From: Coriobacteriia bacterium
GTDB taxonomy: Bacteria > Actinomycetota > Coriobacteriia > Coriobacteriales > JAEZZM01
Direction: 5' to 3'
DNA: 40,089 bases
Assembly (NCBI GenBank): GCA_030532415.1
Contig: JAUNLE010000003.1
Span: 11,107 to 51,195 of the forward strand
Below, piece after piece: positions 2,955 to 36,074 of this stretch. How positions within the stretch are numbered: the stretch's first letter is position 1; each line of letters begins with the position of its first letter. The notes beneath the pieces were generated by a model, which had not been told where the DNA came from, made no database searches, and worked only from the letters and a program-made list of their open reading frames with translations. Position numbers and translations under genes: made by a program.

Positions 2955-3905
2955 CTAGGAACAGGAGCAAGAAGATGCTGCTGATGATTCATCTTCTTCA
3001 TCGGCAGCATAGGGAATGTTTCCACATCCAGGGAAAGGTCCATAGTGTACATGGCGATTTCCGGTAATCTTAAAATACTTGCCTACACGAGTATCTTGTA
3101 CCATAGCGCAAGAATTTCCACAGACATCCAGAGGAACATCTTTCTCAAAACGGTGATGGTCATCTAGGTCGTAAAATGCTCCAGCACCTTCTATACCACC
3201 TAAATAGGTAGCAGTTTGATTATATTGTTCGCAGAGGTCTTCAAGCTTATCTGGAAGTTTATAGGTTCTAAAGGTGCGTTTGAAGTAGGCAATATCGGCA
3301 AAGCGTTCATCTTGTATACGAAGAGGCCTTGTGCTCACGTGTCGTGTGGTCAACCAGCCTGCCTGGGTCATTAAGCGTCTAAAATCCTCTATATAAAGAG
3401 CATTTGACAAGCCATTGGGCTCTTCACCTTTTTTCTGGAGCAAATTAAGGGGAATGCGGCGGTCTGCAAAAATATCGCAGCCATAAAACTCGCCACCATA
3501 ATTAAGAACCCTGAACACTTCCGCTAAGGTTTTTTGCACATTGTTACAGCGTGACAAACTTCCATTACTTAAAACAACATCAATGCTTCCTGATTGAATT
3601 TTATTGAGCTCATCGAGCGGGAATGCAAAAAACTGGCAGTTTTCAGGGGCGTTTTTAAGAGCAATGTCGATTAAAGCTTCGTTTTCATCAACACCAATAA
3701 CAAGCCCATTTTCCCCTACCAACTTTGAGGCAATGTATGCATCACGACCTGCACCACAGCCCAAAACGAGAACTTTTGCACCTTCGAGCGCAAGCGGAAA
3801 AGGATAGCCAACACCCCTTGTGTGTTCTAGGACATCACTTGGAATGTCTTTTACAACTTCCTTCAGGTACTCTGGTACTGCTCCTGGTGAATATAAGTCT
3901 GCCAT
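2955..3905 (-). CDS. Class I SAM-dependent methyltransferase, ArsM (arsenite methyltransferase) fold
   Basis: 316-aa ORF. The SAM motif VLVLGCGAGRDAYIASKLVGENGLVIGVD and the downstream DIFADRR...NALYIEDFRRLMTQAGW are collinear with my recollection of ArsM. The positions of the three As(III)-binding cysteines appear substituted (see findings). RBS AAGGGG. Confidence 0.8.
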   Translation of the reverse strand: MADLYSPGAVPEYLKEVVKDIPSDVLEHTRGVGYPFPLALEGAKVLVLGCGAGRDAYIASKLVGENGLVIGVDENEALIDIALKNAPENCQFFAFPLDELNKIQSGSIDVVLSNGSLSRCNNVQKTLAEVFRVLNYGGEFYGCDIFADRRIPLNLLQKKGEEPNGLSNALYIEDFRRLMTQAGWLTTRHVSTRPLRIQDERFADIAYFKRTFRTYKLPDKLEDLCEQYNQTATYLGGIEGAGAFYDLDDHHRFEKDVPLDVCGNSCAMVQDTRVGKYFKITGNRHVHYGPFPGCGNIPYAADEEDESSAASSCSCS

Positions 3906-3937
3906 TAAGCCAACCCCTTCTTAATATTGGTGCTTCT

Positions 3938-3973
3938 AAAAAAATCGACCTCCGCAAATATTCACGAAGGTCG
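3938..3973 (-). terminator. Rho-independent terminator (minus strand)
   Basis: On the minus strand, stem CGACCTTCG / CGGAGGTCG (9 bp, 1 mismatch) with a 10-nt loop, followed by T7. The T-run ends only about 33 nt upstream of the methyltransferase ATG. Confidence 0.6.
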
Positions 3974-4005
3974 AAAAGAAATAACTATAGTAGTCAGAAT
4001 GTAAA

Positions 4006-4104
4006 CTAGTTGCGTGCAAATTTCCTTAGTGCCACAAGAGCTAAGCCCATGCCTGATAACGCAAGCGTTGGGATTACTGCACTAAGTCCTTTTCTAGATT
4101 TCAT
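4006..4104 (-). CDS. Possible uncalled 32-aa hydrophobic small ORF (signal-peptide-like)
   Basis: My manual translation gives MKSRKGLSAVIPTLALSGMGLALVALRKFARN. AAAGGAA lies about 10 nt upstream of the ATG. The N-terminus resembles the signal peptide of the LRR protein at 35966. It is below the ORF-track cutoff and may be a remnant. Confidence 0.25.
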   Translation of the reverse strand: MKSRKGLSAVIPTLALSGMGLALVALRKFARN

Positions 4105-4216
4105 TCCAACTTATTCCTTTCTATTGTTAGACCACTACATTCTACTTCATCTTTTATAAATATTCTCATCAATATCTTAGAAAGGATCAGCCTAAACTAT
4201 GAACGGAAGCAATACT

Positions 4217-5977
4217 TTAGTCTTCTAGTTGATCAGCCAAAATTTCTCTAAGTTTTTGAGGAAGTATCTGAGGATTAAAAACAAGTTGCGTATGTTTGGT
4301 AATAGGGTTTCCCGCAAATTTACCTATATTAATATGTCCTACATATACTTGCGGTGGCATATTCAAAACTGCTTTTCTCGCCTTAAAAGCATCAGCAAAC
4401 ATACCATCGCCAACAATCAGGCATAAAATTTTTCGTTTAGGATCAACATTAGCAGTAGCTTGAATGTACTTTAGCGCACCTGCAACAATCGTCTGCTCAC
4501 CTGTTGGATGCAAGAGACATTCATAGGCCGTTTGCACTTTTTCTTTTGGATGATAGGTAGCAAGTTCGGTTAAAGGTGCCCACCCTGCAGCAAAGGCAAT
4601 AAGCTGGGTGCGAACATCAATACCAGCTCCGTGATGAAGTGTCTGGGCTTTTTCGAATGCTCTCTCTAAACCTCGAATTAGGCAATATGCCATGTCAGTA
4701 GCCGAACGAGCCTTTTCTCCTCTCATAGAACTCGAAATATCTAGCAGCAAGAATACGTCCATTCCTTCGAATAGCCTGTCTTGCATACGGATATCTTTTT
4801 TTATCTTTTGCCAAATGGGCTGAGGTGTATCAGACTCAAGTGCTCTCATAAGTGCAATTTGAGCATTGGGGTGGATACGAGATCCACTGTATGACATGCG
4901 AGATGCATAACGTGGAACCATCAGCGTCTCCTGGGGATGCGCGATTTGTAAAAGCAAATCAGAAATTTGCTCAATCTCCATCTCCCAGTCGCCCATCTTA
5001 ATCTCTTGTGATTGTTCAGATTCACGAATTTCCATTGAACCGATTTGCGTTTGATCTTTTCGATTAATGGTATTCATGGTGGGAGACTGCGAGTCATCTG
5101 GTTCACTGCGACTTTGAATCAAAAGGTCAATATTACCTTTTTCCATAGCCTCAAGAGCACCATCAATACGATTTTTGTAATCGTGTTCATCTCTCATATG
5201 TGATTCATCAGAAAATGACTGCATTGAAGCAGAATAATCATCTTCTAACTCATAGAGGTTGAGGAAATTCCACGCATCTTGCGTATCTAGGTCAATACGC
5301 AAAAGAGTTTCGTATGGTTTCCACAAAAGGCGTTTTGCCATTTCATGGCGGTCAGTATAACTCAACGACAAGTCTTTAATGTAGCTCTCAAATTCGTTGG
5401 TTAAATCCGTATGCTCAGGTATGGTTCCTATATAGCGTAAAATTAATGGATGAATAACGGCCTGCAGATTCGATTCGAACACATAAAATTTCAGTGCCGA
5501 TAAAAACTGCATATGAAGCGGGTTATTGCGCATAACATGAGGAGCTTGACGCGATAAATATTGATCCATACGCTTTTTAGCGTAAGGTATATGCTCCATA
5601 CGAGCTAATGCAGCCATTTTATCGATTTTCGAATGAAAGTAACGCTCATACTGATCGTTGCGGCATAGCCTTACAGGCTCATGTTTCACGAAAGTCTCGT
5701 CGGTATAATCATACAGCTGCTCAAGATGCTCAAGAATAAACATCGTGTCTATTTCTTCGAGCGTTAAATGACCCTGCACACCATATCGATCCAAGGCAAC
5801 GTTTGCTAATTTTTCGGACTCGTTAGGATTAAACTGGCATACGATACCTTCGCTCGTGACCATAGCTGCAGACTTCACGTCTTCGCTTATTCGAATTGAA
5901 ATCCTCTTAAAACCTAAGACATTGGCAATCGTTTCAATTTTTTTATTTAATGAGGCAGCGCGTTGAATGGCAGACAT
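4217..5977 (-). CDS. von Willebrand factor A (VWA) domain protein, NorD/CbbO/CoxE-like architecture (long N-terminal region plus C-terminal VWA)
   Basis: 586-aa ORF. The C-terminal VWA has MIDAS DxSxS (VFLLLDISSSMRG) and a later VGDG segment. Its ATG is 2 nt after the TAA of the upstream AAA+ gene. Confidence 0.8.
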   Translation of the reverse strand: MSAIQRAASLNKKIETIANVLGFKRISIRISEDVKSAAMVTSEGIVCQFNPNESEKLANVALDRYGVQGHLTLEEIDTMFILEHLEQLYDYTDETFVKHEPVRLCRNDQYERYFHSKIDKMAALARMEHIPYAKKRMDQYLSRQAPHVMRNNPLHMQFLSALKFYVFESNLQAVIHPLILRYIGTIPEHTDLTNEFESYIKDLSLSYTDRHEMAKRLLWKPYETLLRIDLDTQDAWNFLNLYELEDDYSASMQSFSDESHMRDEHDYKNRIDGALEAMEKGNIDLLIQSRSEPDDSQSPTMNTINRKDQTQIGSMEIRESEQSQEIKMGDWEMEIEQISDLLLQIAHPQETLMVPRYASRMSYSGSRIHPNAQIALMRALESDTPQPIWQKIKKDIRMQDRLFEGMDVFLLLDISSSMRGEKARSATDMAYCLIRGLERAFEKAQTLHHGAGIDVRTQLIAFAAGWAPLTELATYHPKEKVQTAYECLLHPTGEQTIVAGALKYIQATANVDPKRKILCLIVGDGMFADAFKARKAVLNMPPQVYVGHINIGKFAGNPITKHTQLVFNPQILPQKLREILADQLED

Positions 5978-5979
5978 TA

Positions 5980-7419
5980 TTACCCCAAGAGTACCTGTAT
6001 TTGCTGCGCAATCTCGAAGTTCTTATGAGAACCTGCTTGATCTAGGTTGTGCAAAATCTTTGTTATAAGGTTGTCATCCAAGCGTTTACCTGGTAAGTTT
6101 CCTTCACTTGCATCACTTACAACGCGATACAATGCACGAGGAGTAATACAGTCGCTCATCAATGATTCTGCATCATTTTGAGTTTGTGTCTTCATATCGT
6201 TTTCTTCAAAAACTGCAATAACGTCTTTTGCAGGATTTGAATAGAGATATTGGGTTGCAAATGCTAAACGAGTGAATTTTTCGAGCTGATCGAGGTCTAT
6301 ATATTCACTAGGTAAGCCATCATAGTCACATGCAGCAGCATAAGCCATGCGCATAAGAGTGTCGGAAGTCTCTAAGAAACTTGTATTGTGAGCATCTGGA
6401 TAGTGTCTAAAAACAATATCAAAACGGTCACGCAAAGCAGGATCTAAAATCTCACGGTGCTTATAGCGAACTGAAGCCTCATTTGCAGTTGCAAACACAG
6501 CAAATCCGTGAGCAATGGTTACGAACTCACCTTTTTCTTGAATGAATACTTTTTCGCCTGGCTCTCTTAAGAGTAGGTCTTGCAAACGAGCGATAATAGC
6601 TTGATCACCGAAGTTAATTTCATCAAGTAAGAGCGGCTTACCCTCTCTCATAGCCTTGAGTAAAACACCATCGACAAACACAAAGGTTTTATTCTTTGCA
6701 TCATGCTCAATTTTTCCGATAAACTCATCACTCATCATATCGCCTTTGATTGACAAGATTAAAGGCTCATCGGTATAAAGACTCATAACAAACTTGACTA
6801 TTTGGGTCTTTGCAATACCCTTATCGCCAACGACTAGTGTTGGATGAGAGTTTAAGATATTACTTATGATTTGGTTTATATCGGCAAGCGTATCTTCATC
6901 GAATAGCAAACCATAGGTCTCAAGGGTGTATTTATCCCAAATAGCTTGAGCTTGTCGTACTGAATCCTCATCGCTTTTCTTTATAAGTTCATCTAAAAGC
7001 TCTTTTTGTTGAGAAATACTTTTGACATAAAATTCAAGTTCATCGGCCGTAAATTCCCTGCCAACAATATTTGCCACAAGCATAGATTTCCATAACAATA
7101 AGTATGAATTAAAGAATGCAATATGTTGCTTATATAGCTCAGTTGCGACTTGGTTTTTCTGTTTAATGACAGATAGCTGTTTAGCAAGACTCTCAAAAAG
7201 ATTGCGAATAAGTTCAGCCTTATCCGAATCATGTTCTTGTGTCTTAAGGGCAAGATCTTTAACTTGTCCATCAGAGGAAACGAACTCTTCTAAATTGTCT
7301 AGCGTGATATCTACATCATAGCTTTGAAGTGCAGATACAAATTTTACTAGCTTTTGTTTTTGCAATTCTGAAATAGCAGTATCGTTGAGCTCTTGAGATT
7401 GAATAGTAATGTTGGACAT
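5980..7419 (-). CDS. AAA+ ATPase of the MoxR/AAA_5 (NorQ/CbbQ/CoxD-like) type with an N-terminal helical extension of about 190 aa
   Basis: 479-aa ORF with Walker A VVGDKGIAKT, Walker B PLLLDEINF, sensor-1 FATANE and an ALRDRF arginine motif typical of AAA_5. Confidence 0.8.
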   Translation of the reverse strand: MSNITIQSQELNDTAISELQKQKLVKFVSALQSYDVDITLDNLEEFVSSDGQVKDLALKTQEHDSDKAELIRNLFESLAKQLSVIKQKNQVATELYKQHIAFFNSYLLLWKSMLVANIVGREFTADELEFYVKSISQQKELLDELIKKSDEDSVRQAQAIWDKYTLETYGLLFDEDTLADINQIISNILNSHPTLVVGDKGIAKTQIVKFVMSLYTDEPLILSIKGDMMSDEFIGKIEHDAKNKTFVFVDGVLLKAMREGKPLLLDEINFGDQAIIARLQDLLLREPGEKVFIQEKGEFVTIAHGFAVFATANEASVRYKHREILDPALRDRFDIVFRHYPDAHNTSFLETSDTLMRMAYAAACDYDGLPSEYIDLDQLEKFTRLAFATQYLYSNPAKDVIAVFEENDMKTQTQNDAESLMSDCITPRALYRVVSDASEGNLPGKRLDDNLITKILHNLDQAGSHKNFEIAQQIQVLLG

Positions 7420-7458
7420 ATTTATTCTTTCTTTAGAAATGGATAGTGTTACCTAATA

Positions 7459-7659
7459 TTATGTACCAAATTTTGTTTTATTTTGATACGTAATAGCGCA
7501 ACTCATTGGTGACTTGACGATAGCCTTTCGCTTATTCGGATTCTTTGCGATTGCGCCAACAGGACAAACCTTAGAACACAACATACATCCAACGCAAGCT
7601 TCTTCATCAATTTCAATAAACCTGCGAACCATGAACATTGAACGTTGTGGACCGTGCAT
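7459..7659 (-). CDS. Small single-cluster ferredoxin-like protein
   Basis: Contains IDEEACVGCMLCSKVCPVGAI (CxxCxxCxxxCP) plus one distal Cys. I prefer the ATG at 7659, preceded by AAGGAGG, over the ORF-track start at 7674, which lies inside that RBS. Confidence 0.65.
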   Translation of the reverse strand: MHGPQRSMFMVRRFIEIDEEACVGCMLCSKVCPVGAIAKNPNKRKAIVKSPMSCAITYQNKTKFGT

Positions 7660-7680
7660 GAAACCTCCTTTCAATAAAGA

Positions 7681-7716
7681 AAACCGGTAGCTTTATAATA
7701 TCAACAAGCTACCGGT
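7681..7716 (-). terminator. Intercistronic hairpin / possible partial terminator between the Mo enzyme and ferredoxin genes
   Basis: Perfect 10-bp stem AACCGGTAGC / GCTACCGGTT with a 16-nt loop. On the minus strand it is followed by TCTTTATT and then the ferredoxin RBS. Confidence 0.4.
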
Positions 7717-7772
7717 TTTCAATTAAATTAAGGTCTTACTGTTTTAAACTTCGTCTTAATCCTCTATCGGAC

Positions 7773-10562
7773 TTATTCAGTAATACCGTTGTTAATCTGA
7801 ACGTCAGATTCTGGAGTCTCAGCGTACTTAACTCTGCGGTCAGTGAAGAGTTTCTTCTCGTCGTCAGAGATTTGGCTCTCGTCAAGCTTTCTGAGTTCTA
7901 CGCAGCCAAGCTTGTCGAATTGATCGTTGAAGTAAGTACCACCGTTGAGGTAGTCAGCTCCAGTGAACCATTGATCGGTACGATCTGCAGGATCGATGCA
8001 TGGATATACGCGGCAGAGTAAACCACGGGTTGTCCAGGTAGCGGTTGCAGCATCTGAACCCTCAACAGAACCATCAACAAGTACGTTAACGTTAGAGATG
8101 AACGCACCTTGGTTCCATGGATCCTCAGCTGGGAGCTCTGGATACCACCATGAAGGCATTGCTTGAACAGTACCCTTGATGATAGCTTGGTCAACGTGAG
8201 CAACTTGCTTAATACGTCCGCGCTCGTTCTCAATCCATACCCACTCACCATCACGGATACCATACTTACGTGCATCCTCACGATGGATGTATACAGAAGG
8301 ATAAGGGAAGATTGAACGGGTACCTTGACCAGGAACACGGTTCTCTGAGTGATAGAGAACAGATACACGACCACCGGTGGTTAGACGTAGTGGATACTTC
8401 TCTGCTAACTCTGGATCAGATAATGGAGTTTCTGGAAGCTCGTGGTAGTAAGGTAATGGGCTGTATCCAAGGTCTTCCATGAAGCATGGAACAATCTCTG
8501 CCTTACGTGATGGAGTAGCGAAACCGCAAGTCTGACCGTTTGGTAAAGTTTCTGCATACTTGTAGAAACGGGTGGTGCTTGGGAAGTAAGTACCTTGCTC
8601 AACTAATTGATCATAGGTTAAGTCAGTACCACGTGAGATACGGAACTTAATGAGGTCCTCGTAGGTCTCCCATGGCCATTGCTCTTCTTCACCAAGACGG
8701 ATACCGAGTTTACGGAAGAAGTCGTAGTCCATGATACGATCGCCAACTGGCTTAGAACCACGGTCACCGCAAACTGAGAAGTCGTTAGCATCCTCAGCAG
8801 TGGTGTAGCATGGACGCTCAAGTGAGTCACAAGCAGGGATGATGTAGTCAGCTAAAGCAGCTGCTGGCGTCTTCCAGTACTCAACATCAACGATGAGTTC
8901 CATGTCCTCTTTCATGATCTTCCATAAACGCTTAGGATCTGGAGCCCATGCCATTGGGTTAGATGACCAAATGATCATACCCTTTACTGGATATGGATCG
9001 CCGAACTCCATTGCGTCGTACATTAATACTGGTGAGCAGAGGAGTTGGTGAAGCATTGGACGAGGTACACCGTGGATCTTACGATACTCGCGGTCGATAA
9101 TCTCGAATCCTTGCCAGCTCATTGCACGGAAGTGATCCCAACCGATGTATTTCTTACGAACCTCAGGATCTACAACCTCAGACATTTCGAGCTCAGAGTC
9201 ACGATATGGGAAGTGCTTGGTTCCGTCAAGATCAGGTACAGGACCAGGTTCACCTACGTACTCACCGCCAGGAACGTCGATGTAGTTGAGGATGATACGC
9301 ATGATGGTCTTGGTGATACAGAGGTTTGAAGCGTTAGGACCGTGTTGGTCACCACCGCCAAGACCCCAAGTAATGAAGCCGTGACCGTTAGTTGCATATA
9401 CGCGAGCAGAATCAATAATCTTGTTCTCAGGAATACCAGTGATAGGTGATGCCCATTGTGGAGTATATGGCTCAGCCATTTCCTTAACAGCTGCCCATGC
9501 AGTGAGACATTCTACCTTGCTACCGTCTTTTAAGGTAACAGTGAATTCACCGTCGATAGCAGCATCAACAGCGCCATCTTTCTTGTATGCGTTAATATCT
9601 GAGTTCCATACGAGAGGAGCGTTTTCTTCTTGATCCCAGACGATGAAGTTACCGTGCTCTTCACCCTCGAATACTTCGTCTGCACGAAGGAGGTGTCTGT
9701 TCTCTTTGGTCATCAAGAATACACCGTTTGACCAGTATTTGATGAAGTCGGTGTTATACCATTCATTCTCGATGATTTGGTTTAACCATGCAAGTGATAA
9801 TGCGTGGTCGGTACCTGGATAAATTGGGAGCCAGATATCAGCAAGTAATGCTTGGGTGGTGCAGTATGGATCAATAACGATCATCTTAGGCTTTTTGCCT
9901 GGACGGTTCATAGCTGCTAAATATTGACGCCACATTGGTGATTGAGGACCATATTTCTCAGAAGCACTCAAACCCCAGATAACAAAGGTATCAGCATAGT
10001 CGATACCAACTGGTGAGAGAGCCTCGATTGGCCAACCAACCATAGCCATGTTGAGTGAGTAGTTCCAGCACCAGCAGATAGTACCAGGATCGCAAACGTT
10101 ACCTGGGTTACCAAGGTAGTTCATGAAACGAGTACGTGACCATAGGTGATCTGAACGATAAGTACCCTCGAAAGATACAAGAGTCTCAGGACCATATTTA
10201 GCGATTAACTCTTTGATCTTGTCAGCAATTTCATCCATTGCTTGCTCGAGAGGAATTTCTTGCCATCTATCCTCACCACGTTTACCAATACGCTTCATAG
10301 CGTGGTTAATACGCTTTGGATGATAGTGCATCTGGATAGCTTTTTGTCCTTTTTCACCGATACGGTCACAAAGAACAGTACCCTCTTTCCAGTTAGGTTT
10401 GATCTCGACAATTCGATCAGTTTCGGTATCTACACCAATAACGATACCGCAGTTGAGGTGACAATAAAAGCAACGTGAATACGTCCATTGTACGCCATGT
10501 TCATCAACATACTTGTTAGGCATGTCGTAAGGCAACACAATTTGCTTTCTTTCTTCCGCCAT
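7773..10562 (-). CDS. Molybdopterin (bis-MGD) oxidoreductase, DMSO reductase family, cytoplasmic type (MoOx-1)
   Basis: 929-aa ORF with N-terminal FS0 motif CFYCHLNC...C (Cx2Cx3C..C). It has the typical KRINHAMKRIGKRGEDRWQEIPLEQAMDEIA segment and the C-terminal TTRGLLCRVY end of the MopB barrel, followed by a 74-aa tail. No twin-arginine signal. RBS AGGAGGGGG. Confidence 0.9.
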   Translation of the reverse strand: MAEERKQIVLPYDMPNKYVDEHGVQWTYSRCFYCHLNCGIVIGVDTETDRIVEIKPNWKEGTVLCDRIGEKGQKAIQMHYHPKRINHAMKRIGKRGEDRWQEIPLEQAMDEIADKIKELIAKYGPETLVSFEGTYRSDHLWSRTRFMNYLGNPGNVCDPGTICWCWNYSLNMAMVGWPIEALSPVGIDYADTFVIWGLSASEKYGPQSPMWRQYLAAMNRPGKKPKMIVIDPYCTTQALLADIWLPIYPGTDHALSLAWLNQIIENEWYNTDFIKYWSNGVFLMTKENRHLLRADEVFEGEEHGNFIVWDQEENAPLVWNSDINAYKKDGAVDAAIDGEFTVTLKDGSKVECLTAWAAVKEMAEPYTPQWASPITGIPENKIIDSARVYATNGHGFITWGLGGGDQHGPNASNLCITKTIMRIILNYIDVPGGEYVGEPGPVPDLDGTKHFPYRDSELEMSEVVDPEVRKKYIGWDHFRAMSWQGFEIIDREYRKIHGVPRPMLHQLLCSPVLMYDAMEFGDPYPVKGMIIWSSNPMAWAPDPKRLWKIMKEDMELIVDVEYWKTPAAALADYIIPACDSLERPCYTTAEDANDFSVCGDRGSKPVGDRIMDYDFFRKLGIRLGEEEQWPWETYEDLIKFRISRGTDLTYDQLVEQGTYFPSTTRFYKYAETLPNGQTCGFATPSRKAEIVPCFMEDLGYSPLPYYHELPETPLSDPELAEKYPLRLTTGGRVSVLYHSENRVPGQGTRSIFPYPSVYIHREDARKYGIRDGEWVWIENERGRIKQVAHVDQAIIKGTVQAMPSWWYPELPAEDPWNQGAFISNVNVLVDGSVEGSDAATATWTTRGLLCRVYPCIDPADRTDQWFTGADYLNGGTYFNDQFDKLGCVELRKLDESQISDDEKKLFTDRRVKYAETPESDVQINNGITE

Positions 10563-10680
10563 CTCTAACCCCCTCCTACTTTCTAAGTGATAGGTAATAT
10601 TTGTAGACGCTTCTCTCGTGGCACCTACGTTACGTTATCTATTATTCAAGACTTCCTGTTTATTTGCATGACCCTTATAA

Positions 10681-10721
10681 GATGATTTTTTAGACTACTA
10701 GTAGGGTGATGCCTAGGGTGA
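10681..10721 (-). promoter_or_regulatory. Candidate operator/promoter module A: TCACCCT-N5-TCACCCT-N11/12-AAAAATCATC
   Basis: The minus strand reads TCACCCTAGGCATCACCCTACTAGTAGTCTAAAAAATCATC. It lies between the LuxR stop (10733) and the MoOx-1 start (10562). A near-identical module occurs at 13667-13706. Confidence 0.45.
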
Positions 10722-10732
10722 CAGCCCTTTAG

Positions 10733-13453
10733 CTAGGATAATGTACTTTTCTTAAAAGCGTCCACTCTATTGTTTACCTCGAGTTTTTGGTAAATATGGG
10801 CAATATGTGTTTTCACAGTATTTAAGGAGATATTGAGCGACTGGGCGATTTCTTTTCTCGACAGGCCCAAATTAAGGAGTTCTAGAATCTCATTTTCACG
10901 ATCGGTTAAATTCGCATCGAATGAAGCTTCTGCAACTGCCTCGGTTTCTTGGTTATCGCCGAAATTACGCAGAATATTTCGGATGAAGTTTTTGGCAGAC
11001 CAATTACTTTTACTGGTGTTAAGCACTTCATGCAAAAGCACGTGCATCTTATCTCCTGCATAAACAAAGACGTCCATCTCTTTATTTTGTTCAGCAAGAC
11101 TTAAGAGACGATTGAGCTCTTTTTTTGCCTGGCCTGATTTTCCAAGCTCTTCTAAGGCCATCACCCGTAAAGTTCTTCCATTGAGTTCAGATGAAATTAA
11201 ATCAAGCTGGATTGCTCGTGCTATAAAGTTTTGAGAGTCTTCTAAAACCTTTTCAAACTTTCCCATCTTATAGTCAATCCAGGAGAAGATAAGCTCGCCT
11301 TTCAGACGGACAATAGGGTTATTGCATGCATTTTCCACAATCATCGCTGCTATATCTTTTGCCTGGTCGTAGTAGCCCATTTCAAAGACAATCTGAGCGT
11401 AAATAAGGTTACCTAAGAAATTTACTCCCCTTGGCAGGCTTTGCGGTTTAATTTCTACCGCCGCCTTGGTGACTAAGTTAAAGGCCTTTTTCTGTTGTGC
11501 AATCATATTAAGATAGAGTGCCTCAATAAATTTAAGCTCGAAATACATATCTATATTTCTTGTTTTAGACAGTCTCTTCTTCGCGCGCTTTAAATACGTT
11601 GAAGCCTCATCCAGACGACCTGTCTTAATACATATATATGCAAGGGCAGTATTCAAGGCACCGTACAGCGAAAAATCTGGAGGACAAACCTGGAGCGTAT
11701 CGCGACACATTTGTTCTGCATCCTCATACTTACCAGAAAGTATGTGCGTCCAACAAATACCAAGACTGCTAAATATAGCGAAAAACTTCGAATGAGCTAA
11801 TTCGGAAAGCGAATGAGACTCAAGATAATACTTTTCGGCTAAAACAAAGTTTCCCGCATATTGATAGGCTTCAGCCAAATCATAGATAATGATGCATTTC
11901 AAAGCATGAGGTAGGCTATCTTTATAGTCTTGTAATAGCTGTTCGTGCTGGTCAATAAGGTATTGGTATTCTCCACGCAAACCTTCACACTTAACCAAGA
12001 CATAGCGCTGTATAAGTGTGATCATTTTTGGATCAAAATAAAATACCGTATGCCGCTCATCAAACAAAATGGTTTGACCTTGGGCGAGCCTATAGTCTTC
12101 CATAAAGATATTGAGCCACTCAAGCAGTTCTTCTCTTCTACCTGCACATAAGTAGGCCCACATTACGAACATTGCTGTGAATGCATTCGTTTTGATTTGC
12201 TCGGCATTCATCTCACAAATGTCCATATAAAACTTGATATTAGAGCTCTCTTTCATAACCGTAAGCGGAGCGCTCAGATTTTTTATGTAGTCGAAATCGC
12301 TTGAGAGCAGCAAAAATTTTACTGCCTCGTACTTTTGACCATCTTTCTCAAACCACTCACTTGCCAAATAGGAAAGCTGCCTAATTGAGTCAAGACGAAT
12401 CTGCATGAGTTTGTTTCTTAGCCAGCGTGAAAATACTGGATTGAACTCATACCAACCGACTTGTTTTGGGTCTTCTTCGATAAATAGATTGAGTTTTAAA
12501 AACTTGTCTAAAACGACCTGAGCATCGTATCTGTCGAGCATGTAATTGCACAAGGATGCATTACAGCGCAAAAGCAGTGATGACTCTACGAGAAACTCTG
12601 AATCCAAGTTACTAATGGGCAAATCATCAAGACAGGCGGTGAAGAAGTTATGTACAAGTGAATTTAAGACATCCTTATCAAGATGCTCGGTTTGAGGCAG
12701 CTCATCGTGGGCCGCTGCCTCTATATAGGTATAGGTTCCTAAAAACCAACCCTTCGTATAGTCATAAAGTTCATCAAGTACGCTGCTTTCAAGTAGTTGT
12801 GGCGCATGCTCTTGTGCGATAAGAGCGGTTTCTTCTTTTGATAAATTAAGCGCATCATTGGCGAAGACATAAACGAAATTTCTAAAGTCTGCACGTATGA
12901 GCGTGCGCGTAAAGTAATTTTCAGCTATCACAAGATGAAATTTAGGCGGCATATACGAGCAGAAGTCATTAATAAAATCTACTGACTTATTGAAATCAAG
13001 CTTGTCGAAATTATCTAAAAAGATAACGACATCTTTGCTTTTCGGATTGCTGCTATATCTATAAAGAGCATTACTTAGGGCAAGTAAAAACTCTTCGTTT
13101 GTCGCAAAATCTTCTTCAAACAGGTCATCAAGCTGGCCTTTTTCGAAAATATTGCTCAGCCCTTGCAAGAGATAGTACTTTAAATTTTCGAAGGTCACAG
13201 CAGTGCCATCAATGGTAAGCCACATCTCATGGAATGCATCTTCAGATAAGGAATTGTAACAATCATATAAAAAGCTTGTTTTACCACTTCCTGGAGGTCC
13301 CTGAATTATGAGTATTTTGTAGTCAATGAGCCGATTGAATTCTTGAACTAATCGATCTCGTTTTTCAAAACGATTGGAATTATAAGGAGGTATTAGCCTG
13401 CTTAAAACAAGTGTTGGTTTCTTGTGGCCCTCTTGCGTATCAGCCATGTACAT
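10733..13453 (-). CDS. MalT-like LuxR-family transcriptional regulator (N-terminal P-loop NTPase, TPR-like middle, C-terminal LuxR HTH)
   Basis: 906-aa ORF with Walker A GPPGSGKTS near the N-terminus. The C-terminal LTDRENEILELLNLGLSRKEIAQSLNISLNTVKTHIAHIYQKLEV is a canonical GerE/LuxR HTH. Confidence 0.9.
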   Translation of the reverse strand: MYMADTQEGHKKPTLVLSRLIPPYNSNRFEKRDRLVQEFNRLIDYKILIIQGPPGSGKTSFLYDCYNSLSEDAFHEMWLTIDGTAVTFENLKYYLLQGLSNIFEKGQLDDLFEEDFATNEEFLLALSNALYRYSSNPKSKDVVIFLDNFDKLDFNKSVDFINDFCSYMPPKFHLVIAENYFTRTLIRADFRNFVYVFANDALNLSKEETALIAQEHAPQLLESSVLDELYDYTKGWFLGTYTYIEAAAHDELPQTEHLDKDVLNSLVHNFFTACLDDLPISNLDSEFLVESSLLLRCNASLCNYMLDRYDAQVVLDKFLKLNLFIEEDPKQVGWYEFNPVFSRWLRNKLMQIRLDSIRQLSYLASEWFEKDGQKYEAVKFLLLSSDFDYIKNLSAPLTVMKESSNIKFYMDICEMNAEQIKTNAFTAMFVMWAYLCAGRREELLEWLNIFMEDYRLAQGQTILFDERHTVFYFDPKMITLIQRYVLVKCEGLRGEYQYLIDQHEQLLQDYKDSLPHALKCIIIYDLAEAYQYAGNFVLAEKYYLESHSLSELAHSKFFAIFSSLGICWTHILSGKYEDAEQMCRDTLQVCPPDFSLYGALNTALAYICIKTGRLDEASTYLKRAKKRLSKTRNIDMYFELKFIEALYLNMIAQQKKAFNLVTKAAVEIKPQSLPRGVNFLGNLIYAQIVFEMGYYDQAKDIAAMIVENACNNPIVRLKGELIFSWIDYKMGKFEKVLEDSQNFIARAIQLDLISSELNGRTLRVMALEELGKSGQAKKELNRLLSLAEQNKEMDVFVYAGDKMHVLLHEVLNTSKSNWSAKNFIRNILRNFGDNQETEAVAEASFDANLTDRENEILELLNLGLSRKEIAQSLNISLNTVKTHIAHIYQKLEVNNRVDAFKKSTLS

Positions 13454-13666
13454 ATACCGTCTCCCTATGTACTCTATTTCTATTTATTCACATCTAGGTA
13501 TAGCTCTATGCTCATAAATAAGATTAATCTATTATATTTTTATATATTTATGTAAATGTACTTTTAATACTTGTAATTTAAATATTTCCCCACAGCTATT
13601 GTAACAAAAAAGGTTTATATGCAGGCTACGAGCGTAACCCTCCTCCATGAGTTTTAGACAAATTCT

Positions 13667-13706
13667 TCACCCTTTGTATCACCCTTAAAAAAGCACAAAA
13701 ATCATC
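13667..13706 (+). promoter_or_regulatory. Candidate operator/promoter module B: TCACCCT-N5-TCACCCT-N11-AAAAATCATC
   Basis: The plus strand reads TCACCCTTTGTATCACCCTTAAAAAAGCACAAAAATCATC, 60 nt upstream of the ATG at 13767. A possible -10 TATTAT lies 34 nt further downstream. Confidence 0.45.
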
Positions 13707-13766
13707 CAATGTCCCACTTTCCTATCTGCTGTTTCATAAGTATTATAGTTAGGGAAGGGGGATATA

Positions 13767-14354
13767 ATGGATACATGTACTGTTTGCGGAACTGAAAAAG
13801 TTGACTTAGTAAAAAATGGCTTTCCGTTTTGTTTGTCTTGCTACAACAAGTCCATGGCTAATGCGTATGGGCATCAAGAAATCAAAGAAATAGAGAAGCT
13901 CGAAGTGGTGGATGAACATGGTTTTGCACACACTTTTAAGCTTGAAGGCTATTCTTTGGGTCAAGACATTCAATGGGGAGCATTTGAATGCTTAGATGAA
14001 GAGGCGCGAAAAAACGGGCGCCAAGGATATGAGTTTAAAATTATAGAGGACTCTCAAATTCCACAAGACGAAGCGGTCGAAAAACTTAGAAGCATCGTTT
14101 TACATAATATGAAAAACACCTCACTTAAGAAAACTGAAAGCCCATTTTATGATGAAACCTTGTTAAGTCGTGATGATTTTCATTTTTCATTAAATGATGA
14201 AGGCTTTGCATACATAAGTGTGGGTAAAGATAATACATTAAAGCTTATTATTGACGGATATGAAATAAGCTCCGATGAGTTTTTGAAAATGCTTTCACGT
14301 ATGGAGGCCTACCAATTCCATTGGAAATTTAGTGATTCATGGGAAAACTCTTAA
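13767..14354 (+). CDS. Hypothetical protein with N-terminal zinc-ribbon
   Basis: 195-aa ORF with RBS GGAAGGGGGA and an N-terminal CTVCG...CLSCY. No family recognised for the remainder. Confidence 0.6.
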   Translation: MDTCTVCGTEKVDLVKNGFPFCLSCYNKSMANAYGHQEIKEIEKLEVVDEHGFAHTFKLEGYSLGQDIQWGAFECLDEEARKNGRQGYEFKIIEDSQIPQDEAVEKLRSIVLHNMKNTSLKKTESPFYDETLLSRDDFHFSLNDEGFAYISVGKDNTLKLIIDGYEISSDEFLKMLSRMEAYQFHWKFSDSWENS

Positions 14355-14387
14355 GCATTTTCCCTTAGCAAGAAAGAGAGAATAAGT

Positions 14388-15383
14388 ATGGCATCAGACC
14401 ACAAATCAGCAATGAAATTTCCTGAAATTGAGCTTAGTTCATATGAACCAGTTCAAATTACCTTAAAGAAAATCGAAATTTCAGACAAGGATATAGAAGA
14501 CCGCATGCGTCAAAATGCTAACAGTTTTGGCATGACCTATGCTGATAGCCCTGAGACCGAGGTGTCGGAGACTTCAATTGTTGATTTTGACTTGCAAGTT
14601 GATTTAAACGGAAAAGACATTCCAAATCTTACTGGTAAAAACCGTATGCTCGATTTAAACGTACCAATGATGCCTCAAAGTTTTAACGATGAAATTATTG
14701 GTATGAAAGTGGGAGAAACCAAGGAATTTATCTTTAATACTCCTGGTAATGCTGATCTTGAGAGCGAAAATACGACTACCGACTTCCACGCAGTTGTAAC
14801 TATTAACAAAATCAAAGATCGCGTTGAGCCTGAAATCACTGATGAATGGGTTAAGCAGTATATTCCTTTTGTAAATACTGTTGAAGAATTCCGTCAACAA
14901 GCTCGTGATGAAATTCAATCAGAGATTAATGAGTTTGCAAAAAATGAGAAGATTTCTCAGGCTGCTAACAAATTATCTGAAAGATTTGAAGGTAAAGTTG
15001 GAGACGAACTTTACAAGCAAGTTATGGACGATTTAAAGAACACCTATGAGCAACAAGCACAATCAATGGGTCAAACTCTTGAAGAAGCCTTGAAAGAACA
15101 AGGTAGCAGCATGCAACAATTCACTATGACCTTGATGATGCAAGCTCGTCAAACCGTACGCCAAGGTTTATCGCTTGATGCATGGGCTCGCCATTATAAC
15201 ATCACTCCAAAAGACAACGACATCAATATGATGTTAGAGACTATGTATCCTGGCCAAGGTCAACAAATGCGTGAGCAGTTCAATGAAAACCCAGAACAAC
15301 TCGAAGGTTTAGAAATTGCTGCACGTAGATATCTAGCTAACATGGATGTTGTGGCTAAAGCGCAAGTTGTATACGAAGATTAG
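14388..15383 (+). CDS. Trigger-factor-like chaperone lacking the N-terminal ribosome-binding domain (PceT/RdhT-like architecture)
   Basis: 331-aa ORF. It is collinear with the trigger-factor linker, the FKBP-like domain (VDFDLQVDLNGKDIP...GMKVGETKEF) and the C-terminal arm domain. No GFRxGxxP ribosome-docking signature is present. Confidence 0.8.
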   Translation: MASDHKSAMKFPEIELSSYEPVQITLKKIEISDKDIEDRMRQNANSFGMTYADSPETEVSETSIVDFDLQVDLNGKDIPNLTGKNRMLDLNVPMMPQSFNDEIIGMKVGETKEFIFNTPGNADLESENTTTDFHAVVTINKIKDRVEPEITDEWVKQYIPFVNTVEEFRQQARDEIQSEINEFAKNEKISQAANKLSERFEGKVGDELYKQVMDDLKNTYEQQAQSMGQTLEEALKEQGSSMQQFTMTLMMQARQTVRQGLSLDAWARHYNITPKDNDINMMLETMYPGQGQQMREQFNENPEQLEGLEIAARRYLANMDVVAKAQVVYED

Positions 15384-15392
15384 GAGGTAGAC

Positions 15393-15707
15393 ATGGCAGC
15401 AGATTCCCAAAATAAGGATAATCTTACTAATGATGATGTAAGAATTGTTGAAATAAAGGCACCAGGTTCAGACAAGGTTATTACCAAAGAGGTGCGAGAA
15501 GAAAAGCCAGAGGTTACTTGTCCAAACTGTGGTTCAAATGATGTTACCTTTACTCATTCCCCTATTAGCTACACGATCTTAACGTGTACCTGCAACGATT
15601 GTTCAGAGCGCTTTACCTGGGATACCCTTGATAAAAAAGCTCTCGATACTGAAAAAGACAGGATATCAAGTAAGCCTTACAAAGGTCCATATCCTCCTTT
15701 TTTATAG
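15393..15707 (+). CDS. Small zinc-ribbon protein
   Basis: 104-aa ORF with RBS AGGAGG 5 nt upstream and CPNCGSNDV...CTCNDCSERF (4-Cys ribbon). Confidence 0.6.
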   Translation: MAADSQNKDNLTNDDVRIVEIKAPGSDKVITKEVREEKPEVTCPNCGSNDVTFTHSPISYTILTCTCNDCSERFTWDTLDKKALDTEKDRISSKPYKGPYPPFL

Positions 15708-15767: not shown

Positions 15768-15803
15768 AAGAGGTTTAGCAAAACGCTAGACCTCTTCTTT
15801 TTT
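15768..15803 (+). terminator. Rho-independent terminator
   Basis: Stem AAGAGGTTTAGC / GCTAGACCTCTT (12 bp including one G-U) with loop AAAAC, followed by CTTTTTT. Confidence 0.75.
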
Positions 15804-25381: not shown

Positions 25382-27043
25382 CTAGCTCTCATCCTGTGCA
25401 AGTAATTTCATTTCTTTCACTTTTTTCTCAACTAAAGAAATTAACTCTTGCTGTGATTGGACTTCAAGTTTGTTATAGATATTATATCTATGTGATTTTA
25501 CTGTATTTTTTGATATAAATAATTTTTTATGAATAAACTCTGTATCGCGTCCATGTGAAAGCAACTCAAATACCTCAAGTTGTCTACTCGACAATCCCTG
25601 TTGTTGTGCAATTTCTTTAATGCTTTCTCGCCAGAACTGCGGTGCTTCATACTCTTCAAGTTCCTTATTTTTAAAATTAGCTGGATTCTCAAACGACGAA
25701 CGAACGAAAAAAGTAAATACAAACAAAGCAAACAGACTAAGCAAACAAAAAACCATCAAAGCAAAAGGACCTAGCTTCAATATAATCCAACCGACTATCC
25801 AGCCACATAACATACCAAAAGCATTCCAAAAACGGCCGTGAGCAAATTCTTGAAGCTTGGGAAGCTTATACGTTTGAATGATTAATGCAATTTTCCATAA
25901 GTTCAATATGTCATAACAAGCAAAACAAATTGCAAATAAAGCATACGTTAAATATTTATACTCATCAAAAATATAAGGAGTTAGCAATAGAACTAACACT
26001 TCAACGCTAAGCAATATTCTGAAAATATTGTCTATTGAAATATATTTAAAAAAATGAAACCAATATAACAATAATAGCGAACCTGGCAAAAGCATAGAGA
26101 TGTACAAATACTGGTTTTCTTCAGATGCAAAATTAGCTCCTATACAAAGCATTGTTGCGAAGACAAATGCATAGAAAAATATCTCTAGGCCAAAATAAGG
26201 AAAAGAAAAGACTTTCCCATCAGAGTCATAATTTTCAAGCTTAATGTAATTCGATACATATATATCAATTGAACGTGTTAATCTATTACGAACTTTTCTT
26301 TCTTCACAAATCTCGACTTTCACATTTTTGTTTTGCCAGTTTGAGACTTCCGTATGTTCTGTGACAGACAGGTCAAGAGGATCTTCGTTCGTCTTTTTAT
26401 CATTTTGCACAAATAATTTTAATTGGCTTTGCCGAAATACATGATATATCAAGATCAGAAAAACCAAGCAGACTAACAGTGCTAGTGAAACCACAAATTG
26501 ATTTTGATTAGATAACAAAATATACAGTAAGGAAGTTAATATTAAACCAAAACTTACAATATAAGCAATATCATCACGGTGGAGGGCTGTGAGAATATGA
26601 CCCATCGCAAGCAGAGCGGCTGCCAACGTAGTGCCTGTTAGATACCAAGATATAACTATGAAAGGAAGTGGCAAAATAACATTACCATTAAGAAAATTTA
26701 ATATTGAAGGCATAATAAAAAGTAAAAGTGATCCAATCATAAAGATATATGCAGGAATGAGAAACTTTTCAGTCTTTATTTTCTTATTAAAATGCCAAAA
26801 TATTGCTAGGAACACAGTTGATCCAAAAAAAGCAGACCCTTTTAAAATAATGCTGATATGCTCAAACTCAGTTGGATACACATTGAAAATATCAGTATGA
26901 TAAATCAGGAACATCAGGACCCAATAAAATGTAAAAATTAGAAAACCTAAAACATTATATGGGGTAATAAAACAAAAAACTCCATCAAAAGCCTCATTAT
27001 CTATAGAATTATTTGATTGAGTCACGTCTTTTTGCATTTTCAT
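25382..27043 (-). CDS. Polytopic-membrane LuxR-family one-component regulator
   Basis: 553-aa ORF with about 12-14 hydrophobic helices, interrupted by a soluble loop of about 80 aa. The C-terminal LSSRQLEVFELLSHGRDTEFIHKKLFISKNTVKSHRYNIYNKLEV is a LuxR HTH. Confidence 0.85.
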   Translation of the reverse strand: MKMQKDVTQSNNSIDNEAFDGVFCFITPYNVLGFLIFTFYWVLMFLIYHTDIFNVYPTEFEHISIILKGSAFFGSTVFLAIFWHFNKKIKTEKFLIPAYIFMIGSLLLFIMPSILNFLNGNVILPLPFIVISWYLTGTTLAAALLAMGHILTALHRDDIAYIVSFGLILTSLLYILLSNQNQFVVSLALLVCLVFLILIYHVFRQSQLKLFVQNDKKTNEDPLDLSVTEHTEVSNWQNKNVKVEICEERKVRNRLTRSIDIYVSNYIKLENYDSDGKVFSFPYFGLEIFFYAFVFATMLCIGANFASEENQYLYISMLLPGSLLLLYWFHFFKYISIDNIFRILLSVEVLVLLLTPYIFDEYKYLTYALFAICFACYDILNLWKIALIIQTYKLPKLQEFAHGRFWNAFGMLCGWIVGWIILKLGPFALMVFCLLSLFALFVFTFFVRSSFENPANFKNKELEEYEAPQFWRESIKEIAQQQGLSSRQLEVFELLSHGRDTEFIHKKLFISKNTVKSHRYNIYNKLEVQSQQELISLVEKKVKEMKLLAQDES

Positions 27044-27196: not shown

Positions 27197-27376
27197 ATGT
27201 GCGGATATGCATGCATACAATGCGGTCGATGCGGCAAAAAAGTTTCAAAAATCTCTAAAAACACTTTTCACGTAGCTGGCCTCTGTGAAGCCTGTGGAAC
27301 ATTGAATAGCCCGAGCGCAAAAATTTGTAAGAAATGTAGCCAGGATCTTATTTCTCCAGCTAAACAGCATAATTAA
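27197..27376 (+). CDS. Uncalled 59-aa Cys-rich zinc-ribbon-like small protein
   Basis: My manual translation gives MCGYACIQCGRCGKKVSKISKNTFHVAGLCEACGTLNSPSAKICKKCSQDLISPAKQHN (9 Cys). Strong RBS AAAGGAGA lies 6 nt upstream. It is one residue under the ORF-track cutoff. Confidence 0.55.
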   Translation: MCGYACIQCGRCGKKVSKISKNTFHVAGLCEACGTLNSPSAKICKKCSQDLISPAKQHN

Positions 27377-29819: not shown

Positions 29820-29836
29820 AAGCATAGGAGATTAAG

Positions 29837-30169
29837 ATGGCTAAATATGGGATACTTGTTGACTTCGAATGGTGCACCGGTTGCCATACATGCGAAGTTG
29901 CCTGTCAAATGGAAAATCATCTTCCCACCGACCGTTTTGGAGTTAAGCTTGCTGCCTTAGGTCCTTGGGAAATAAGTAAGAATAACTGGCAACACGATAA
30001 CATTCCACTTTTTACAAATGAGTGTAATCTATGTGCTCATCGTGTAGCAAAGGGCAAAGAACCTACTTGCGTAAAGCACTGTCAATCAAAATGCCTTGTG
30101 TTTGGAACGGTTGATGAACTTAAAGAAAAGATGACTGATAAATCTCGTCAGATGCTCTTTATACCTTAA
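29837..30169 (+). CDS. Miniature Fe-S beta subunit (4Fe-4S ferredoxin-type)
   Basis: 110-aa ORF with RBS AGGAGA. It has CTGCHTCEVAC (group-I motif) and CNLCAHRVAKGKEPTCVKHC (group-IV-type motif of DmsB/PsrB-like proteins). The two central cluster motifs are absent. Confidence 0.75.
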   Translation: MAKYGILVDFEWCTGCHTCEVACQMENHLPTDRFGVKLAALGPWEISKNNWQHDNIPLFTNECNLCAHRVAKGKEPTCVKHCQSKCLVFGTVDELKEKMTDKSRQMLFIP

Positions 30170-30179
30170 ATCCTGATCC

Positions 30180-30226
30180 AAGAAAGAGAGTTTTATAACA
30201 AAGATAAAGCTCTCTTTCTTTTATTT
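30180..30226 (+). terminator. Rho-independent terminator
   Basis: Perfect 11-bp stem AAGAAAGAGAG / CTCTCTTTCTT with a 19-nt loop, followed by TTATTT. Confidence 0.6.
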
Positions 30227-30312
30227 AAAAAGGTACTATTATTAATTGAGGGGGAATTAGGTCTATGAGGATCTAATTTAAAAGGGAAATATAATAAAAA
30301 AGGGGAGAAAAA

Positions 30313-31168: not shown

Positions 31169-31316
31169 ATACTCGCTCCTTTAAAAATTCAACCCAAATT
31201 TCAACCAAAAGTATCTTGTTTTTCAATTGAAAATAGGTTTCGGTTTTCTGCCGTAATGATATAGAATTGATACGGAAGTTTTACGTTAGCGGCAATGGGT
31301 TTAAACACACAGCGAA

Positions 31317-35966: not shown

Positions 35967-36074
35967 TACAACTTTCCCCTTTCAATTCAGCTCGTTCTAT
36001 TCTACTCCTTTTTATATAAATAGTCTCTAGTAATGGCCTAAGGTCATAATGGCTTGCTCATCGGCTTGCAAAAC

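Follow-up and report, generated by a model that had tools for sequence, protein, structure and literature searches.

A repeated TCACCCT module flanking a MalT-like LuxR gene as a candidate activator site of a molybdenum-enzyme operon in a Coriobacteriia bacterium

Do two similar intergenic sequences on either side of a single regulator gene form a shared operator through which that regulator controls the operons beside it? The question is raised by a 40,089-nucleotide (nt) stretch from a Coriobacteriia bacterium (assembly GCA_030532415.1, contig JAUNLE010000003.1, positions 11,107 to 51,195; hereafter the window), in which a minus-strand gene for a 906-amino acid (aa) MalT-like LuxR protein (W906, 10733-13453) separates two such sequences. 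Site A faces a molybdenum (Mo)-enzyme gene on the minus strand (7773-10562), while site B faces a zinc-ribbon and trigger-factor-like operon on the plus strand (13767-15707). The original prediction, made by inspection of the window, was that both are bound by the 906-aa protein, and this proposal is supported by arrays upstream of homologous Mo-enzyme genes, by a metagenome scan conducted on DNA only, by co-variation between boxes and the regulator recognition helix, and by the published layout of MalT sites. It is likely, in our view, that each site forms the part of an activator-dependent σ70 promoter of the MalT type to which the activator binds; with a little less assurance, we favor a functional site B that shares its regulation with site A.

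Firstly, the two sites share a composite element whose occurrence in the window is confined to them. Site A reads TCACCCT AGGCA TCACCCT ACTAGTAGTCT AAAAAATCATC on the minus strand (10721-10681) and site B reads TCACCCT TTGTA TCACCCT TAAAAAAGCAC AAAAATCATC on the plus strand (13667-13706), in both cases at the coordinates and on the strands first given for them. The two distal heptamers, located by motif scan, are placed 12 nt apart from start to start (site A: 10715-10721 and 10703-10709, minus strand; site B: 13667-13673 and 13679-13685, plus strand). Exact matches to TCACCCT-N5-TCACCCT on both strands of the window number two (10703-10721, minus, and 13667-13685, plus), bearing out the initial visual impression that the tandem heptamer with this periodicity is restricted to these positions, and the number of exact heptamer pairs expected from base composition is about 2e-4 (2 x 40 kb). 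The sole further match with up to three mismatches falls inside the coding sequence of the Mo enzyme and is no more than chance predicts (1.94 expected). The longer composite TCACCCT-N5-TCACCCT-N11/12-AAAAATCATC is likewise found twice, at sites A and B, and the recurrence of the shared 10-base block AAAAATCATC within ±1 nt beyond the heptamer pair makes coincidence negligible. Exact 7-mer direct repeats with a spacing of 9-14 nt are present at four places in the intergenic regions (sites A and B and positions 31188 and 36051), with a spacing of 12 at all four. Looser scans of the window for TTCAACC pairs and GCAAGCC pairs (up to three mismatches), for TCAYCY-N5-RGGTCA (up to two mismatches) and for AACCT-N4-AGGTT gave no further convincing sites. 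In a strict scan over 24 bases, 185,579 species genomes, a collection outside which the source genome lies, gave a single match; it is antisense inside a 901-aa open reading frame (ORF) of a Bacteroidetes metagenome-assembled genome and was judged to be a chance match.

The identity between sites A and B is limited to the two heptamers, the A-tract, TCATC and an equal distance to the -10 hexamer, while the spacers diverge, and this block-wise match argues for constraint rather than for recent duplication or decay. It also bears on the idea that the copies mark, as terminal inverted repeats, the ends of a segment that carries the regulator and can move or invert. The copies are indeed inverted and flank a 2.9-kb single-gene segment, but the divergence of the spacers between conserved blocks, the absence of any transposase or recombinase in or beside 10681-13706, and the finding that arrays elsewhere are single and always directed toward a gene, with a fixed distance to a -10 hexamer (described below), leave this explanation very improbable. 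The segment between the sites also takes in the 200-bp upstream region of the regulator gene itself.

Secondly, each site is joined to a -10-like hexamer by a fixed distance. In both sites ATCATC is followed, at a distance of exactly 34 nt, by a hexamer that matches TATAAT at five of six positions, AATAAT in site A (10641-10646, minus strand; 20 nt after GGTCATG) and TATTAT in site B (13741-13746, plus strand). The -10 element had been placed 34-36 nt after ATCATC and read as TAATAG or TATTAT; its presence stands, with the distance sharpened to 34 nt at both sites and the site A hexamer corrected to AATAAT. Transcription would start at approximately 10634 from site A and approximately 13753 from site B, the latter giving a predicted 5′ untranslated region of about 14 nt. 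A scan of the relevant strands at both sites for consensus σ70 -35/-10 pairs found none, which fits activator dependence without amounting to a positive promoter call, and the combination of a -10 hexamer with no recognizable -35 gives both promoters an activator-dependent appearance.

The block between the heptamer pair and the -10 hexamer had been described as a separate element, AAAAATCATC, a description that we replace by two parts, first an A-tract and then a degenerate MalT-type proximal box (TCATCTT in site A, TCATCCA in site B). In site A an A6 tract (10686-10691, minus strand), the counterpart of an AT-rich spacer before the proximal heptamer in related promoters, precedes the proximal site TCATCTT-ATAAG-GGTCATG (TCATCT-N5-GGGTCA; 10667-10685, minus strand) in the -35 region. 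The GGTCATG box overlaps the -35 position, the proximal site is the only exact TCAYCY-N5-RGGTCA match in the window, and N22 separates TCATCT-N5-GGGTCA from AATAAT; the whole (TCATCTT-ATAAG-GGTCATG-N20-AATAAT, 10685-10641) fits the layout of the related promoters fully. Site B has an A5 tract, the proximal TCATCCA containing the exact MalT core TCATCC, then ATGTC and CCACTTT (13697-13720, plus strand). Compared with the MalT core TCMTCC/GGAKGA, the proximal boxes match at 5/6 (TCATCT) and 6/6 (TCATCC) positions and the distal TCACCC at 5/6. Both sites contain at least two asymmetric boxes repeated directly at about one helical turn; at the -35 position site A has TCATCT-N5-GGGTCA with AATAAT, and site B has the left half only, TCATCC with TATTAT.

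A different reading of these coordinates is that the module acts as RNA, in a 5′-leader (riboswitch, attenuator or anti-Shine-Dalgarno sequence) common to the two operons. Folding of leader A pairs the first heptamer with the GGGGG of the ribosome-binding site, and leader B can form a hairpin that sequesters its ribosome-binding site (z = -1.75). However the two folds use different partners, fold A is no better than that of shuffled sequence (z = -0.10), and no Rfam family is matched at the gathering threshold. The -10 hexamer is moreover downstream of the heptamers in 11 of 11 promoters with this layout (see below), which implies that the boxes would not be transcribed from that -10, and the boxes co-vary with a protein recognition helix. 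A function as RNA is accordingly given little weight and appears highly unlikely.

The arrangement that remains, a MalT-type activator site with a variant box, is indicated by its geometric match to the Actinoplanes MalT site and to E. coli malPp. In Actinoplanes sp. SE50/110 the MalT site TCATCC-N5-GGATGA lies over the -35 position, with 34.4 ± 1 nt between the motif's 3′ end and the transcription start site (PMC7567727). Site A similarly places a hexamer, N5 and an inverted hexamer over the -35 and ends about 35 nt before its predicted start, and in both organisms one MalT-like LuxR serves several promoters in a local gene region (a prediction here). The sites differ in that the right half is RGGTCA here, making an imperfect palindrome, in the 1-3 extra same-orientation boxes upstream, and in the missing right half of site B. 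The E. coli MalT box has the core GGA(T/G)GA and is located at the -35, as summarized in PMC7567727. In the sequence of E. coli malPp we find TCATCC and TCCTCC as a direct repeat 13 bp apart followed by an inverted GGATGA, a reading with which the 1991 paper by Vidal-Ingigliardi et al., cited in PMC8265627, agrees in its title. Sites A and B resemble the E. coli promoters (malPp, malKp and malEp) in having a direct-repeat box pair at about one helical turn and no -35 hexamer, and in a site at -35 that is complete in site A and reduced to its left half in site B, whereas their distal boxes are TCACCCT instead of TCMTCC with a spacing of 12 bp, an A-tract gap of 23-24 bp separates distal from proximal boxes, and a Mo enzyme and a chaperone-like operon take the place of the maltodextrin genes as predicted targets.

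The protein encoded between the sites has the E. coli MalT organization of a STAND ATPase, a superhelical sensor and a GerE helix-turn-helix domain, and Pfam confirms the gene calls between and flanking the two sites. AAA_16 is matched at 29.4 bits, just under the Pfam cut-off of 32.6, TPR_MalT at 60.7 bits (cut-off 45; several other TPR families also match) and GerE at 65.9 bits (residues 848-899, aligning with the DNA-binding domains of DesR, VraR, NarL and GerE), and PF25873 WHD_MalT is in the precomputed domain list for the protein. Walker A (GPPGSGKT, residues 52-59) and Walker B (VVIFLDNFD, approximately 141-149) motifs are present, and residues 15-387 align with residues 2-370 of E. coli MalT (8bob), with a marginal E value of 1.3e-4 over the NOD (P-loop NTPase) domain. 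The protein is soluble, having no 19-residue window with a Kyte-Doolittle hydropathy of at least 1.6, and GerE is its only DNA-binding domain, with no Pfam match to Trans_reg_C or BTAD (SARP). A search for homologues of the regulator among 5.8 billion proteins returned only proteins of 21-22% identity. With no close orthologue of the regulator there is no true orthologous footprint, and footprinting was routed via the Mo enzyme and the trigger-factor-like protein.

Thirdly, in the comparative footprinting of intergenic regions that had been proposed, run here through the Mo enzyme, the same promoter layout recurs beside MalT-like LuxR genes in other genomes. It stands before homologous Mo-enzyme genes in six retrieved neighborhoods, and also before an AAA+ gene and an unrelated ABC-transporter operon. 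Neighborhoods were retrieved via Mo-enzyme homologues of 56-79% identity (L002, L003, L004/L005, L006, L007 and L026), and a MalT-like LuxR gene adjoins in every one of them. Upstream of the homologues of 63-79% identity (L002, L003, L004/L005, L006 and L026) lie arrays of 2-4 same-orientation TCACCC(T/A) heptamers 10-13 nt apart, followed by N5, the box GGTCATG (in some GGCCATG, GGTCACG or GGACCATG), N20(±1) and, last, a -10-like hexamer; where site A has its A-tract, relatives of higher GC content have an AT-rich spacer. The layout of heptamer array, N5, 7-mer box, N20(±1) and -10-like hexamer was tabulated for 11 promoters, three in the window and one each at L002, L003, L004a, L004b, L006, L007, L012 and L025. 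The hexamer occupies its slot in 11/11, with a chance of 0.011-0.071 per locus for a three-position slot, and L026 gives a twelfth example of the layout. A GGTCATG-like box is found in site A and in 7/8 of the related promoters outside the window, while the promoter of Ellagibacter (L007), like site B, is without it. At L004 the gene homologous to the AAA+ gene of the window has its own promoter of the TCACCC type, which puts the AAA+ pair in the regulon there; L004 is thus a second genome with the boxes of one regulator before two transcription units.

L026 has a possible second promoter of this layout, where the opposite strand at 5740-5800 reads AACCCCT-TTTGG-GGTCATG-N21-TATCAT and faces a divergent gene for a transporter of the major facilitator superfamily (MFS). 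The spacing to TATCAT is one base longer than in most promoters and the same as on the Mo-enzyme side of L026, and this second GGTCATG box suggests that the MFS transporter belongs to the same regulon there.

The layout was also recovered with no protein information, in a metagenome scan with the motif TCACCC-N4-8-TCACCCT-N5-GGYCATG. The scan returned 14 loci. In two independent sequences, L012 and L023/L025, the site lies 70-80 nt past the stop codon of a 971-aa TPR_MalT + GerE protein and is followed at a conserved distance by CATAAT or CATACT. The L025 site (3777-3806) comes from a high-GC organism and has no connection with a Mo enzyme; a small ORF and a MacB-type ABC transporter, the latter carrying a cNMP-binding domain, follow downstream (3893-7927). 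The occurrence of such hits beside MalT-like LuxR genes in unrelated contexts indicates that this promoter type travels with the LuxR genes and not with the Mo enzyme. The remaining 11/14 loci were low-complexity CCCTCA-type repeats or isolated matches without a nearby LuxR gene, and were set aside as chance.

These neighborhoods also bear on which LuxR protein reads the boxes, as the operator could be genuine and yet belong to the 553-aa membrane LuxR of the window (25382-27043) or to a paralogue encoded outside it. The window encodes three LuxR proteins (906, 919 and 553 aa) along with four Mo enzymes including that at 7773-10562, the recognition helix of the 553-aa protein is S-K-N-T-V-K-S-H, and genomes of this kind have many LuxR paralogues beside Mo enzymes (PMC9734109). 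Yet at seven other loci, among them those found from DNA alone, the sole constant neighbor of the TCACCC array is a MalT-like LuxR with an N-T helix, the short or membrane LuxRs examined adjoin inverted repeats and not direct arrays, and sites A and B both flank the 906-aa gene. Another LuxR as the reader therefore seems improbable, and we retain the 906-aa protein as the candidate.

Finally, the boxes vary together with the start of the GerE recognition helix, which is S-L-N-T-V-K-T-H in the 906-aa regulator. The regulators beside TCACCC boxes (W906, L002, L003, L004, L006, L025/L012 and L026) have a helix starting x-N-T-x-K-x-H, whereas those beside TCAACC or TCAACT boxes (Ellagibacter L007 and the 919-aa protein of the window, W919) start x-S-T-x-K-S-H, and the short LuxRs of L009 and L010, with the half-site TCAACCT (in TAAACCT-N3-AGGTTGA), have the helix S-E-S-T-A-K-T-H. 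In E. coli MalT the helix starts T-T in place of N-T, and this T goes with the sites TCATCC and TCCTCC. The Ellagibacter L007 promoter carries its TCAACC/TCAACT boxes in the same layout as the TCACCC promoters. Full-length protein similarity yields the same grouping of regulators as the box type, with W919 and the Ellagibacter regulator being reciprocal best matches (27% identity, E = 4e-91).

The gene for W919 (31317-34076) is preceded by the third promoter of this layout in the window (31188-31267, plus strand), which reads TTCAACC-N5-TTCAACC ... TCAATTG-AAAAT-AGGTTTC-N20-TAGAAT and suggests that the 919-aa paralogue is autoregulated. The inverted repeat TAAACCT-N3-AGGTTGA occurs at L009 5922-5940 and at L010 11585-11603 and 13254-13272, with a -10-like hexamer about 20 nt later, and precedes Mo-enzyme genes (L009 and L010) and a gene for a short LuxR of 467-480 aa (L010); it is probably the operator of the short LuxR class. 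The L009 and L010 clusters also encode the closest homologues of the trigger-factor-like protein. L011 encodes a LuxR with the same S-T helix, and no TAAACCT-N3-AGGTTGA repeat was found in its locus.

The part of the proposal that concerns site B turns on the operon that it faces. The first gene encodes a DUF7685/7686/7713 protein of 195 aa (13767-14354), the second a trigger-factor-like protein of 331 aa that has Trigger_C only and no ribosome-binding domain (14388-15383), and the third a small CxxC protein of 104 aa (15393-15707), after which an intrinsic-terminator-like hairpin with a T-run closes the operon (15768-15796; all plus strand). In Ellagibacter isourolithinifaciens a trigger-factor-like gene (38% identity, C-terminal domain) is divergent beside the Mo-enzyme homologue, and closer homologues (42-44% identity) sit in clusters with LuxR and Mo-enzyme genes; a chaperone function for the protein is predicted from this synteny. 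The absence of the right half-site from site B, with CCACTTT at the position occupied by GGTCATG in site A, means that the promoter may be weak or non-functional. Site A could then be a real MalT-type promoter and site B a partial copy that arose by chance or has decayed, such as a piece of promoter that was duplicated as the regulator gene inserted, so that the trigger-factor-like operon would not be co-induced. Consistent with this, no array lies upstream of the trigger-factor-like homologues in L007 and L009-L011, and no trigger-factor-like gene is found within 6-10 kb in L002-L006 and L026. Decay would not, however, be expected to leave identity to site A only in the functional blocks with the spacers differing, nor a TCATCC that is the exact MalT core (PMC7567727), and the Ellagibacter promoter keeps the layout although it too is without GGTCATG, in a genome where the trigger-factor-like gene is syntenic with the Mo enzyme. 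We therefore regard a decayed site B as a minority possibility, to be taken more seriously than the other alternatives, and keep to a functional site B as the better-supported reading.

Besides the missing half-site and the lack of arrays before the trigger-factor-like homologues, several observations weigh against a shared operator for the 906-aa protein. The heptamer spacing is 12 bp here and 10, 11 or 13 bp elsewhere, and outside this window and the site-C promoter no gap of 23-24 bp to the proximal box is seen. The regulator itself lacks a close orthologue (best identity, 32%). The co-variation, in which all cases agree, comes from a small sample of seven regulators versus four with an associated site, and the 553-aa membrane LuxR (25382-27043) also has an N-T helix, making cross-recognition possible.

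The sequence evidence is compatible with the following course of activation, in which binding, transcription starts, inducer and co-induction are all predicted steps. An inducer (probably what the Mo enzyme uses as substrate, or else a related aromatic compound) would bind together with ATP to the soluble 906-aa STAND/LuxR protein, which would oligomerize in the manner of MalT and present GerE domains that bind the boxes cooperatively on one face of the helix. With the proximal box two helical turns beyond the TCACCCT pair, the promoter-proximal subunits may stand in for the -35 element and recruit RNA polymerase, and the Mo-enzyme operon and the divergent zinc-ribbon/trigger-factor-like operon would be switched on together. 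Such a mechanism falls within a known family, that of MalT/LAL activators working through repeated boxes in class II-type fashion, and it would leave the understanding of how MalT-type activators work unchanged; what appears to be new is the variant box, the predicted target genes and a suggestive specificity rule, in an arrangement that recurs in distant bacteria.

How far activation from site A would extend along its operon is less certain. The first gene downstream encodes a 929-aa Mo/W oxidoreductase of the bis-molybdopterin guanine dinucleotide (bis-MGD) type (7773-10562), which has no twin-arginine translocation (Tat) signal and no hydrophobic segment and whose best solved relative is acetylene hydratase (E = 1.8e-85). 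It is followed on the minus strand by genes for a small 4Fe-4S ferredoxin (7459-7674), a MoxR-type AAA+ protein (5980-7419) and the 586-aa partner of the latter (4217-5977), and downstream of the 586-aa gene lies a hairpin (3945-3974, also minus strand) that, with its T-run, resembles an intrinsic terminator. Identity to the L004 pair, which has its own TCACCC promoter, is 52% for the AAA+ protein and 34% for its partner. The gap between the Mo-enzyme and ferredoxin genes (7675-7772, minus strand) contains a hairpin with a 14-bp stem (AAAACCGGTAGCTT / AAGCTACCGGTTTT) followed by TTTTCTTT, and embedded in this spacer is a σ70-like TTGAAA-16-TG-TATTAT. The spacer could act to terminate transcription in part and/or to start it internally before the ferredoxin gene, so that coupling of the ferredoxin, AAA+ and 586-aa genes to site A may be incomplete and their co-induction is not assured.

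Taking the promoters of the window and of the related loci together, we tentatively raise a broader proposal, itself rather doubtful as a joint claim, of a general TCAxCC promoter layout for the LuxR paralogues beside Mo-enzyme genes in anaerobic Firmicutes and Coriobacteriia. Under it, MalT-like proteins would use direct arrays and short or membrane LuxRs inverted repeats, the last box would lie at a fixed 20-22 nt before the -10, and the first helix residue would set position 4 of the box (N to C, S to A, T to T/C), while the truncated trigger factor and the two zinc-ribbon proteins would be dedicated, co-induced maturation factors for the cytoplasmic, acetylene-hydratase-like Mo enzyme. If this were true, sequence alone would suffice to read regulons and to match regulators with their cognate enzymes. 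Expression of Mo enzymes from this clade is difficult, as is the assignment of their substrates; adjacent LuxR regulators have already served as a handle for finding substrates, for the membrane-spanning class only (PMC9734109, PMC11585353). An operator for the soluble MalT-like class would add predicted regulons, a candidate helix-box specificity rule and inducible promoter parts, and at this locus it would offer a testable link between the enzyme, the MoxR/VWA pair and the trigger-factor-like chaperone operon.

Three other known systems share features with the locus. The 10-12-transmembrane (TM) LuxR activators DadR, CadR and HcdR of the Eggerthella/Gordonibacter catechol dehydroxylases, for which no operator has been defined (PMC9734109, PMC11585353), are likewise encoded beside bis-MGD enzymes, which are substrate-inducible in their case, and homologues of the 929-aa Mo enzyme are found in the same Eggerthellaceae (Ellagibacter and Raoultibacter). 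Those activators are membrane sensors, whereas the 906-aa regulator is a soluble STAND protein without the 10-12 TM segments. SARP-LAL regulators such as PimR combine heptamer direct repeats of about one-turn periodicity near the -35 with a large ATP-binding regulator (PMC5930380, PMC3367932); their repeats are bound by an N-terminal SARP (OmpR-type) domain, in contrast to the 906-aa protein, which ends in GerE. Among the papers searched, none relevant was found on TCACCCT together with LuxR or on control of molybdopterin enzymes by MalT-like regulators.

The trigger-factor-like protein has a parallel in PceT/RdhT, the trigger-factor-like chaperone of reductive dehalogenases in Desulfitobacterium-like Firmicutes, which has no ribosome-binding N-domain. 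In both cases a trigger factor paralogue without this domain is encoded beside a complex cofactor-containing redox enzyme; here the partner is a Mo enzyme without a Tat signal and the gene stands between two zinc-ribbon genes.

The remaining observations concern other parts of the window. The 553-aa LuxR gene (25382-27043, minus strand) encodes about 10 hydrophobic segments before GerE, placing the protein in the membrane-spanning LuxR class known from the Eggerthella catechol dehydroxylases, and is divergent from a Mo-enzyme gene (27588-29819). Between the two lies an uncalled ORF of 59 aa (27197-27376, plus strand) with several CxxC pairs; comparable small CxxC-rich ORFs lie between Mo-enzyme genes at L009 8796-9530 and L011 15514-16087, and it appears that these clusters are repeatedly accompanied by small zinc-ribbon proteins. 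Desulfitobacterium sp. PCE1 (L008 13814-17244) shares with the window (27588-31101) a gene order of a Mo enzyme of about 745 aa, a small Fer4 protein and SpoVAC-like genes; the 929-aa Mo enzyme has a homologue there too, truncated to 541 aa. By itself this resemblance would hint at a source organism of the Desulfitobacterium-like, spore-forming Firmicute type. The fourth intergenic heptamer pair with 12-nt spacing, GCAAGCC-GATGA-GCAAGCC (36051-36069, minus strand), lies just past the terminator of the NrfD/Mo-enzyme operon and upstream of a gene for a leucine-rich repeat protein (34244-35857); it has no second copy in the window, and the box/-10 layout was not seen there. Inside the leucine-rich repeat protein gene, tandem 63-nt units at 35013-35453 form five overlapping copies of a 126-nt reference with 61-100% identity.

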